Shown: one piece after another, positions 30,001 through 33,000 of the stretch
Layout of the letters: the number at the start of each line of letters is the position of its first letter
How positions within the stretch are numbered: the stretch's first letter is position 1
Assembly: GCA_041484665.1 (NCBI GenBank)
Contig: JBGPIA010000012.1
Coordinates: forward strand, 65,914 to 129,913
Source: Candidatus Krumholzibacteriia bacterium
GTDB lineage: Bacteria; Krumholzibacteriota; Krumholzibacteriia; JAJRXK01
Length of the DNA stretch: 64,000 nt
Reading direction: 5' to 3'
Made by a program: the position numbers

Positions 30001-33000
30001 ACGCGCGTCCGTGCGGAGGTCGGCTCACCCTGGGATCTCTCGCCGGATGGGGCCGCCCTGGCGATCGTGGTGCAGGACTCGGTGGCACACATCCGGGTCG
30101 TCTCGCTGCGCGATGGCGCGACGCACGACGTGAGGCCGAACCCGCAGTTTGGTATCGAGAGCCTGGCATGGGCGGCCGACAGCGGAAGTTGGTTGGCCAC
30201 CGGCATGGTCGGCCGCGCTGGCGCGGAGGAGTGGCGCTTGGTTCGCGTTGCTCCCGGCGGCAAGGCGACCGCGCTTGTGCCTCCGCAGTTCTGGATGTAC
30301 AGCTCGGCGGCATCACCCGACGGCCGTCGCGTCGCCTACACGAACAATACCGGTGAGAGCAGTGTCTGGCTGCTTGAGGATTTCTGAGCCGCCGGGCGTC
30401 GTGTTGCCCCGTCGCATGGGAGTTCCGCCGTCGCCGCGAGGCTAAGGTTGTGATATGACGACCCACAACGCGCGGTCCTGCTTGGGACGCTGGTCAGCCT
30501 GCAGCGTGGGGGATGCGGCCGCTGTAGAGACTCGGCACCAGCCACGGCTTCTTCCGCAGCAGCTCGACGATGGGCGGTGGCGCGAGGCCCTTGGAGGCGT
30601 TTCGAGCCTGGGCCGGCGACTGCGGCCACTGGAAGGGCAGCTCCACATAGCTGTCGGGCCCGGTCGCGCTCGCAAGCAGCTCCAGCATCGCGCGCAGCAC
30701 GGCGCGCTGGCCGTCAGCGTCGTGCGGTCGGCCCAGGGGCCGGCCCATCGGGTAGCTGATGCCCGCCAGCCGGGGCACGCCGACGGCGCGGGTCAGCTCG
30801 GGGATCATGGAGAGCGCCACCGTGGGAATGCCGCTCGCCTCGAGGACGCGTTGAACCAGCCCTACGGACCGGCAGCAGAACGGTCAGCCGGGCACCAGCG
30901 CCGCCGCGTCGACACGCTCGGCGCGCATGCGCTCGGCGATGGCCGGCGCCGTCTTCTCGACTAACTCCTTCGGCTGGAGGATGTAGCCCATCATAGAGTA
31001 GTGGGTGGGCGCGGGGCGGCCGACGACACCGTCGCCCGCGAGCTCGGCCAGCCGGCGCATCGGTAGCACGACGTCGAGATCGGCCTCGCCGAAGCGCGGG
31101 TCGATGTGCATGTGGTACAGCCGGACGTCCCGTTCCGTGGTACCGAGGGGGATCGCGCGGAAGCTCGGGTCGCCCCACCAAGGGTCACGCCGCTCGCCGT
31201 CCTGGTCGAAGGGCTGGTCGTCGTTGCGCGCCACACCGGCGGTCGAGACGAGCGCCACGGTGCACTCGCGCAGCGGCTTCGCGAGCGGCGTAAAGGGGAT
31301 CGCGCCGGGCTCCTGCCGCGCGGCCCAGGCCTTCATGATCTGTCGCGTTGCCAAGTCGAGGAAGCGGTACGAGTCAATGGTCATCAATGTCAGCCTTGAG
31401 CCGCCGATGGGCCGGTTGAGGCGTCCGACAGAACCGGACGCACGGTCTTTGCGCGTCCAGATCTAGGGTGGATTTGCAGTTCGAACGCACAACCGTCTTG
31501 GCGACGGATTGGGGGTCTGCCGGTGCTCTGGGGCGCGCTGCCTCCAACCACGCGGCCGCGGGCCTGAAATGACCGGCTCCTGTTGGGACTCAGAGGGGCG
31601 ATGAGCGCGGTGCAGTTGCACCGGATGAAGCAGCGCCTCGTAGAAGCGATGCGCTCGACGGCCGTCCGTGGCGAGTTCCGCATTCCAGACACCCACGCAA
31701 TCACAATCTTGCATTACCCGGCCGAAGGACAAGTCGTGCGCCATGCCAGGCGCAACAATGAAAGCGCCGCGCTCCGAGATGCGAGCGCGGCGCGTTTCAA
31801 GCGAAGTCGGACGCTACCGATAGAGCCCCTTCACCCTCCCCCATGTGTCGGGCACTGTGGGCACGGGCGCACAGCAGTCGGCATCCACCCACTGGCGGAG
31901 ATTGCCCGGCCAGCCGTCCGCGCACATTTCGCGGGGCGGGGAAAACGGGAACGCGATGAACGAGCGGCAGGAGATGCAGTCTTGGGCGGCTTCAAAGCCA
32001 ATGCCAAGCTCGGTCCGGTCGCACGTGCCACTGTCCACGAGCTTCACGCTCAGGAATGCGGGCCCGTTGATGCAACAACGATCCGGGAGGGGAAACGAGG
32101 CTGTGAAGCTCTGGAACGAGATGGAGGTCGCGAAGTAGTTGTACGTTTGCGGCCCGCACAGCACGACGCTGGGATCCGGCTCCAGGCACGCCGGGCCGGG
32201 CGTCGCGCCGATGATGCTCACTTCCACCGTGAAGGTGCAACCACCAGGCACGATGTATCTCCCCAGCACATTTGCGATCGTCAGCTGAAGGGCGCCGCCC
32301 TGACACCCCGCGCAGTCAGTTGGATTCAGTAACGTGTAGTAGTTGACGCCTGGAGTCGTGACCCCTCCCCCCCAAAAATGTTGTTGGTGGTCCGCAACTC
32401 ACCCACCGAGCAGGTAGCGGACACCGCAGCCGGCCCGGCTTGGCGATCGGACGAATGTTGTTCGGGAACGACCTGGCTCGATCCCGCCGAGACCCCAGCC
32501 CGCGAGACACCAACGGGGAGCGTCGCGAACCACCATACGAGGAGGAGGCAAGTGCAAGCGTAGCGCCAAGGCATGGTGACCCCCTTTGAAGCGCGGCTCC
32601 GAGGGCTGCCCCATGGCCTCAAGTGAGACCTCCCCCGGGGCCCGGGTGAGGCTGCCCGCGAGGGGGGCGTGTGGCCGAAATCCTATCAGCTCACCGAGGC
32701 CCCAACAGCGCGAAAGTTTTTCCACGGTAACGATCGGTTGCAGGTGGGGATGCCCGCCACGAGTCTCCGCCGTGGGAACCAGTCGACTCAAATCTCGAGG
32801 CGCTTGGCGTGGCAAGCCTCGTCACGACGGGTAATGCACAGACGCGGGTACCGCTCCAGTGGCTCGCAGATGAAGGGCAGATCGGGATCGAGTCGGCTCC
32901 ACACCGCGCCGCGGCTTCCGCGGCGCGCGCGAGAATCATCTTGACTCGGCCCCGCACGCGACGGGACGATTTGCTCGCATCGCTGGCGCCCACCCCCGAG

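Follow-up and report, generated by a model that had tools for sequence, protein, structure and literature searches.

The closest described relatives of the protein studied here are the selenocysteine (Sec) subunits PrdB of D-proline reductase and GrdB, GrdF and GrdH of the glycine reductase type. In the Prd enzyme, the pyruvoyl group of PrdA binds D-proline and the Sec of PrdB attacks its alpha carbon (PMC11229817, in excerpt), and the resulting selenoether is resolved by a cysteine of PrdB (PMC3091704, in excerpt). Without PrdA, Prd-type substrate activation is missing.

Genes labeled PrdB have been counted in ocean surface water since 2005. In the Sargasso Sea, 'PrdB' ranked third in abundance among selenoprotein families, with 42 genes versus 1 grdA (PMC1088965); the GOS survey held 235 'PrdB' selenoproteins (PMC2398784); a later survey put 'PrdB' at 6.4% of marine selenoprotein genes (PMC9402790); and 'PrdB' has been listed in Anaeromyxobacter and Geobacter (PMC1794560; all four in excerpt). 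The excerpted text of the Sargasso Sea and GOS reports assigns these genes to proline reduction and leaves the missing partners undiscussed. Excerpts of three reviews describe PrdB solely as a proline reductase subunit (PMC13188914, PMC9312934, PMC5029168), and one of them ranks proline reductase among the commonest bacterial selenoprotein families (PMC9312934). We found no study of a partner-less PrdB-like protein in the literature searched, with supplements and most subscription journals lying outside its scope. The main text of the BSepDB catalogue (PMC13326102) contains 0 PrdB/GrdB terms, and catalogues may already list such genes. Because selenoprotein catalogues enter them under 'proline reductase', genome papers may wrongly infer Stickland fermentation.

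The gene described here lies in a 64,000-nucleotide window of a Candidatus Krumholzibacteriia genome (contig JBGPIA010000012.1), to which all coordinates refer unless a contig or locus is named. It belongs to this long-catalogued family. The environmental 'proline reductase PrdB' sequences, and the proteins that PGAP names 'glycine/sarcosine/betaine reductase selenoprotein B family protein', likewise carry UxxC and match PF07355. Relative to the marine set, which is known here by description only, the query clade has its own extensions and its own transfer history.

A selenoprotein gene that annotation splits in two

The gene and its selenocysteine elements are as follows.

30494..31384, minus strand: PrdB-like selenoprotein gene, 296 codons plus stop, from the ATG at 31384 to the TGA stop at 30494
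30884..30886, minus strand: in-frame TGA at codon 167, read as selenocysteine U167, in VPG-U-PFCC
30872..30886, minus strand: U-P-F-C-C redox motif, residues 167-171, at the start of helix 168-183 and after strand 160-164 (AlphaFold)
30856..30872, minus strand: bacterial SECIS hairpin of 7 bp with loop GUN, the loop beginning 18 nt past the UGA

The assignment of selenocysteine is well supported by conservation of the TGA, a conserved hairpin and the Sec machinery of the genome. Of 29 genome loci, 28 have TGA at codon 167 and one is a 24-residue fragment. The codon is likewise TGA in all 80 metagenome loci kept from 133 confirmed, many of them near-identical. The gene callers split the frame, and a true stop, leaving two small genes or a pseudogene, would account for this; however, the 108 loci that cover the site all carry TGA and never TAA or TAG, and database homologs align a Cys to the same column. 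The first-pass annotation had proposed a read-through frame of 296 amino acids, and we recovered the same frame and the same codon. It had also placed a TGA before P[FYIV]C[CS] in relatives, which now extends to 28 of 28 covering genome loci. Four loci (L011, L015, L025 and L031) have frames that are shifted or shortened around an intact TGA motif, through either sequencing error or decay.

The predicted fold of the gene itself has a GUA loop on a stem that begins 11 nt after the UGA. Folding energy in this region is ordinary relative to shuffled sequences (z about -1), as a true stop would allow, but synonymous sites within the hairpin are frozen: codons 173 and 176 are invariant in 24 of 24 rows. 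Pairing holds in 99.4% of 161 cells from 23 aligned sequences, against 5 to 64% in slid controls, and only a single stem pair is altered on both sides. The genome encodes selA, selB, selD and tRNA-Sec, and its selD has an in-frame TGA of its own. Although selA exceeds its cut-off in just 23 of 29 genomes, a full set of Sec machinery in the host of this gene speaks against a true stop, which we regard as extremely improbable.

A stand-alone PrdB-like branch of the PF07355 superfamily

The best family match is the PrdB model TIGR04483, at 139.7 bits against a curated cut-off of 300. GrdB-type NCBIfam models give 35.9 to 51.1 bits, also below their cut-offs, and the protein has 296 residues compared with about 430 in full-length GrdB, GrdF and GrdH. 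Both sets of scores reproduce those of the first-pass annotation. Pfam PF07355 (GRDB) matches at 27.7 bits (gathering score 22) over model positions 214 to 344. A tree of 62 rows separates 6 PrdB and 4 GrdB-type rows from the 52 that we refer to as orphans. The query falls in a separate clade with 98% SH-aLRT and PrdB in a clade with 95% SH-aLRT, both from a quick tree in which PrdB is represented by 6 Bacillota sequences. One of these six, a gene on a P. acidaminophilum plasmid (L139:4944-5657), has the PrdB glycine loops and no annotated prdA within 5 kb.

PrdB (Sec151 in C. difficile) is the same domain from end to end, aligning with query residues 31 to 253 at about 33% identity, with U-x-x-C in the same place and with His91, Asp102, Arg76, Glu182 and Pro204-Arg205 of the query common to both. 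The two differ in that PrdB has U-G-T-C-H where the query has U-P-F-C-C, in the three extensions and replaced glycine loops of the query clade, and in the absence of prdA, prdH, prdC, prdD, prdE and racemase genes from the query genome. The GrdB, GrdF and GrdH proteins (PF07355) are homologous through their C-terminal half, with Sec at the matching position; in contrast, the query lacks their N-terminal half and U-x-x-C-x-x-C, and its genome has no GrdA or GrdE. By its PF07355 match, its short form and the lack of partners, the protein falls in a stand-alone PrdB-like branch of the PF07355 superfamily, outside the PrdB and GrdB equivalogs, and the query represents a transferred subclade of a large, catalogued, uncharacterized family.

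Some family members have neither Sec nor Cys at the site. The first-pass annotation had found Pfam GRDB on this gene alone; Pfam GRDB indeed matches nothing else in the genome, but a second family member is present that this search misses (G000:C10:93707-94501, minus strand; L228:708-1502). It encodes 265 amino acids, scores 62.3 bits with TIGR04483, and has R-R-L-D-H in place of U-x-x-C, with no Sec and no CxxC cysteines. We consider it a probable non-redox paralog. No such motif-less paralog was found in other carriers: 24 of 28 matching genomes contain a single match, and any additional matches in the remaining 4 are Sec-form copies or fragments. The PrdB-like domain was also observed in two fusions. 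The distant homolog P0124, a singleton from a contig of 2.8 kb, joins it to an AMP-binding enzyme, and P0044 joins it to an HTH domain.

The missing reductase partners

We searched for the partner families directly. Neither PF09338 (PrdA/GrdE) nor PF04723 (GrdA) matches the query genome, which is 93.65% complete. Searching it by tblastn with PrdA, PrdC, PrdD, PrdE, PrdH, racemase and GrdE-type queries, or with a profile of PrdA/PrdD/PrdE/GrdE, likewise gave no match. PF09338 matches none of 29 genomes reached through relatives, and GrdA none of 29 carriers, with 4 of 4 chosen GrdA controls positive. The built-in PF09338 controls were silent, so a set of 251 Chloroflexota genomes served as the control and returned strong matches in 10 (this tally includes G126). 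The UGSC family, searched as a possible partner, matched none of five genomes, but its controls were also silent, so this negative carries no weight.

The same Chloroflexota set shows how common the partner-less state is. The family profile matches 56 of the 251 genomes, and the short PrdB-like form (at least 200 bits) occurs in 49; 45 of these have no PF09338, and the remaining 4 carry it at another locus. For the short PrdB-like branch, being without partners is thus the rule and not peculiar to one genome. The selA gene is present in 188 of the 251 (a tally that includes G126, G250 and G269). The short form without PrdA/GrdE (45/251) outnumbers PrdA/GrdE genomes (10/251) in this sample, and in some phyla the partner-less radiation is far commoner than true proline or glycine reductase. 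The lack of a PrdA/GrdA/GrdE-type partner, as claimed in the first-pass annotation, holds in the query genome and in 29 others, with positive controls. Its placement of the gene outside Stickland fermentation is supported: all five carriers tested have heme-copper oxidase family genes, a feature that sets query-type hosts apart in the comparison with PrdB. In contrast, its presentation of orphan status, spread and conservation as new was overstated, given how common 'PrdB' is in Sargasso Sea and GOS water and the partner-less form is in Chloroflexota.

These results bear on whether the query is simply the B subunit of a D-proline or glycine reductase, its partner genes having been lost to incomplete assemblies. 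Its best family match is a PrdB model, it is 33% identical to L. salivarius PrdB over 243 residues, and metagenome-assembled genomes are incomplete. However, about 30 genomes have no partner, one of them a single 4.2-Mb chromosome record, and the Chloroflexota carriers repeat the pattern. With scores under every cut-off and a position outside the PrdB clade added to the missing partners, this explanation is largely refuted, and we hold it to be very unlikely.

Replaced glycine loops and three clade extensions

AlphaFold models the read-through protein as an alpha/beta structure with a pLDDT of 96.6 and a pTM of 0.94. Three segments of it extend the PrdB domain.

31304..31384, minus strand: N-terminal extension, residues 1-27 with helix 11-23, present in the clade rows; PrdB rows begin later and show no match (envelope-trimmed)
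31175..31204, minus strand: insertion, residues 61-70, before a conserved GD-x-S-x-R; a gap in 6 of 6 PrdB rows
30497..30625, minus strand: C-terminal extension, residues 254-296, three short helices, which PrdB rows lack; modeled with confidence to about residue 290

Two features of this comparison are new, both read from aligned sequences: the query clade adds these three extensions, and three glycine-rich loops of PrdA-partnered PrdB become bulky residues across the orphan radiation. HGG[YF] is present in 6 of 6 PrdB rows and HGG[YF]D in none of 52 orphan rows; MGGGG occurs in 6 of 6 PrdB rows and MGGG in 1 of 52 orphan rows; and position 168 is Gly in 6 of 6 PrdB rows and Pro in 43 of 52 orphan rows. 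Cys170 is kept in 48 of 52 orphan rows and in all six PrdB rows, and His91, Arg76, Asp102, Glu182 and Arg205 are also retained between the two. The PrdB loops may make room for PrdA, a space that the orphans would have filled.

No solved relative was found by sequence at E<=10, and a second sequence search gave nothing beyond designed proteins and some weak rows of acyl-CoA dehydrogenases. Foldseek likewise gave none at E<=0.001. The best fold matches, with Z of 6.4 to 8.5, are LacI-type and short-chain-dehydrogenase alpha/beta folds. The fold looks Rossmann-like, and the matches listed include no chain with a thioredoxin fold. Glutaredoxins carry a CP[YF]C motif at a helix start, with Pro following the nucleophile. 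The likeness of the query to CPxC enzymes of the glutaredoxin/thioredoxin type appears to be one of motif only, and their fold probably differs.

Genomic neighborhood

The gene is flanked as follows.

27565..30387, plus strand: Ser/Thr kinase with PD40 repeats (Pfam), a convergent neighbor, context only
31817..32269, minus strand: ORF of 151 aa without a family match, 430 bp upstream, context only

Given the convergent kinase and the 430-bp gap to the upstream ORF, the gene is probably transcribed alone. A terminator-like hairpin lies at 31793-31764 (1 found, 0.6 expected), and no sigma-70-like promoter was found. The genome has 38 kinase-domain frames, which makes the adjacent kinase weak evidence of a link. 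Across 109 loci there is no fixed neighbor; a Ser/Thr kinase recurs most often (17 loci), followed by a CoA-binding protein (13, near-identical loci), the latter encoded about 35 bp upstream in one lineage. Lineages have unrelated upstream sequences, and their flanks differ as far as the start codon, with no conserved operon or shared operator found in them.

Outside the query clade, short PrdB-like genes of a sister clade adjoin an AhpC/TSA peroxiredoxin gene at L038, L131 and L136, in two lineages. Eight Chloroflexota loci (L110-L118) have the PrdB-like gene downstream of a DUF547 gene, and six loci (L123-L133) have it near genes for thioredoxin and an adenylate-kinase-like protein; each of these two sets may be a single lineage. 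Elsewhere in the window are genes for a VirJ-family alpha/beta hydrolase (25531-27243, minus strand) and for a protein with tachylectin, dimethylformamidase-beta-like and FlgD-Ig regions (34252-36633, minus strand).

Transfer between phyla

We evaluated the spread of the gene against RecA from the same genomes. The query clade is patchy, occurring in 2 of 61 genomes among the relatives of the query genome and, at an identity of at least 70%, in 5 of 201 genomes in the class of a Vicinamibacterales carrier. Compared with the query genome (G000), the selenoprotein is 75 to 87% identical and RecA 64 to 73%. Close pairs reverse this order, with median identities of 0.86 for the selenoprotein and 0.94 for RecA in 9 pairs. 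Tree distances for the selenoprotein relative to RecA give a ratio of 2.66 across 8 close pairs and of 0.55 across 155 distant ones, the distant set excluding four divergent Chloroflexota and Gemmatimonadota rows. Four-fold sites match at 0.70 to 0.73 with Myxococcota, Betaproteobacteria and one Acidobacteriota copy, where about 0.41 is expected. These distance ratios and four-fold-site matches point to past transfer between phyla under ordinary purifying selection, and the gene has moved between unrelated soil and sediment bacteria. AU tests, with groups named after inspection of the tree, reject monophyly of the query's own class (p 0.005) and reject neither Acidobacteriota monophyly (p 0.081) nor a Vicinamibacterales-type group (p 0.054).

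By tetranucleotide profile, contig C12 agrees with its bin (r 0.992). Misbinning could nevertheless inflate the transfer picture, since the Myxococcota contig is only 6 kb and two carriers have Eisenbacteria-like RecA. In the 'Methylomirabilota' genome G077, RecA clusters with a sequence from Eisenbacteria. The 'Verrucomicrobiia' genome G078 has a RecA fragment that shares 97.5% identity with the RecA of G077 and 91% with the same Eisenbacteria sequence. Judging from these sequences, the labels of the corresponding loci (L022 and L023) are probably wrong, and the two probably do not represent separate phyla.

Several statements of the first-pass annotation are narrowed accordingly. Its identity of 75 to 90% across soil phyla holds as 75 to 87% within one clade, but Gemmatimonadota and Chloroflexota copies are 48 to 59% identical. 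Its carrier phyla probably lose Methylomirabilota and Verrucomicrobiia on the RecA evidence. Of its 'exceptional constraint or recent spread', spread between phyla stands and exceptional constraint is not supported, as in close genome pairs the protein diverges about 2.7 times faster than RecA. Its soil setting is qualified too: the runs holding the DNA are sediment metagenomes in 19 of 19 listed. A rice-paddy RNA run gave contigs of relatives only, 12 of 13 of them under 90% alike, and so is no evidence that this gene is transcribed. Stand-alone PrdB-like copies occur on plasmids of Roseomonas and Haematobacter, and phages gave no match to the gene.

Candidate functions

Our leading interpretation, held tentatively and at a little below even confidence, is a free-standing cytoplasmic selenol/thiol oxidoreductase on the PrdB fold that is recycled by thioredoxin. 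The missing partners, the absence of a fixed neighbor and the replaced glycine loops favor it. It also draws on the position of U-P-F-C at the beginning of a helix, the peroxiredoxin neighbor at three sister-clade loci and the redox genes of the host, which include thioredoxin reductase, heme-copper oxidase family genes and Sec-containing thioredoxin-like and peroxiredoxin-like frames. In addition, GrdB is reported to have peroxidase activity in the title of a 2007 paper by Grobe (listed among the references of PMC2702500). Sec167, at the helix N-terminus, would attack an oxidized sulfur or oxygen center in a peroxide, a disulfide or an oxidized cysteine of a protein or small thiol. Cys170 would resolve the adduct to a selenenylsulfide, which the thioredoxin system of the cell would re-reduce. 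PrdA would not be needed, with bulky residues filling the glycine-rich loops of partnered PrdB, and the three extensions may close and stabilize the fold. A single gene would suffice in any host with Sec machinery and could thus move between phyla as one ORF. We infer this catalytic cycle, the substrate class, the electron donor and the role of the extensions. A free-standing thiol/selenol-dependent reductase of a small substrate had been proposed in the first-pass annotation, of which the selenoprotein without recognizable partners stands and the enzyme function is likewise conjectural. The oxidoreductase interpretation is opposed by the lack of a redox neighbor across the 109 loci of the query clade, by a Rossmann-like fold with a best Z of 8.5 and no close solved relative, and by the family members without Sec/Cys. 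The retained His91, Asp102, Arg76, Glu182 and Arg205 are compatible with a general redox role and equally with a site for a specific small molecule.

The main alternative, which we regard as possible but doubtful, is a pyruvoyl-free reductive bond-cleaving enzyme that keeps PrdB chemistry and acts on a substrate already activated, so that PrdA is dispensable. The selenolate would attack carbon in a quaternary ammonium or sulfonium compound or a CoA thioester, and Cys170 would cut the selenoether. Betaine reductase is not known to require a pyruvoyl group, and the core residues common to PrdB and the query suit such chemistry. Selenoether resolution also occurs within PrdB itself (PMC3091704, in excerpt). 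The CoA-binding gene upstream and the AMP-binding fusion of the distant homolog P0124 would fit as well, but they represent one lineage and one short contig, respectively. Moreover, across 109 loci the genes of this clade have no conserved transporter, catabolic gene or regulator next to them, and the flanks share no operator. In its broadest form, which we consider unlikely, the partner-less PrdB-like radiation would consist of single-chain selenoenzymes that need no pyruvoyl subunit to break C-N or C-S bonds in metabolites activated beforehand (betaines, sulfonium compounds and acyl-CoAs). The query clade would then be a self-contained form that passes between phyla as a single gene. Quite unlikely, in our estimate, is that the protein forms part of a complex with a partner that has no relation to PrdA/GrdE and whose gene lies elsewhere in the genome. 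PrdB binds PrdA tightly (PMC11229817, in excerpt), the extensions could form a binding surface, and a motif-less paralog is present in the same genome. However, that paralog was not found in other carriers, and a single ORF that crosses phyla between unrelated flanks is hard to reconcile with an obligate two-gene system. Whichever reaction it catalyzes, this compact, confidently modeled single-gene member with diagnostic loop changes offers a practical entry to that of the family.

Three further TGA-split frames in the same genome, all on the minus strand, are probable selenoproteins. The first (G000:C1:901353) has a W-U-H-T-C motif and a long helical tail, and we take its product to be thioredoxin-like by motif. 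The second (G000:C15:47701) has a T-P-G-U motif and is presumably peroxiredoxin-like. The third (G000:C4:50029) combines a C-G-U motif with C-terminal CxxCH motifs, by which we assume it to be UshA-like.
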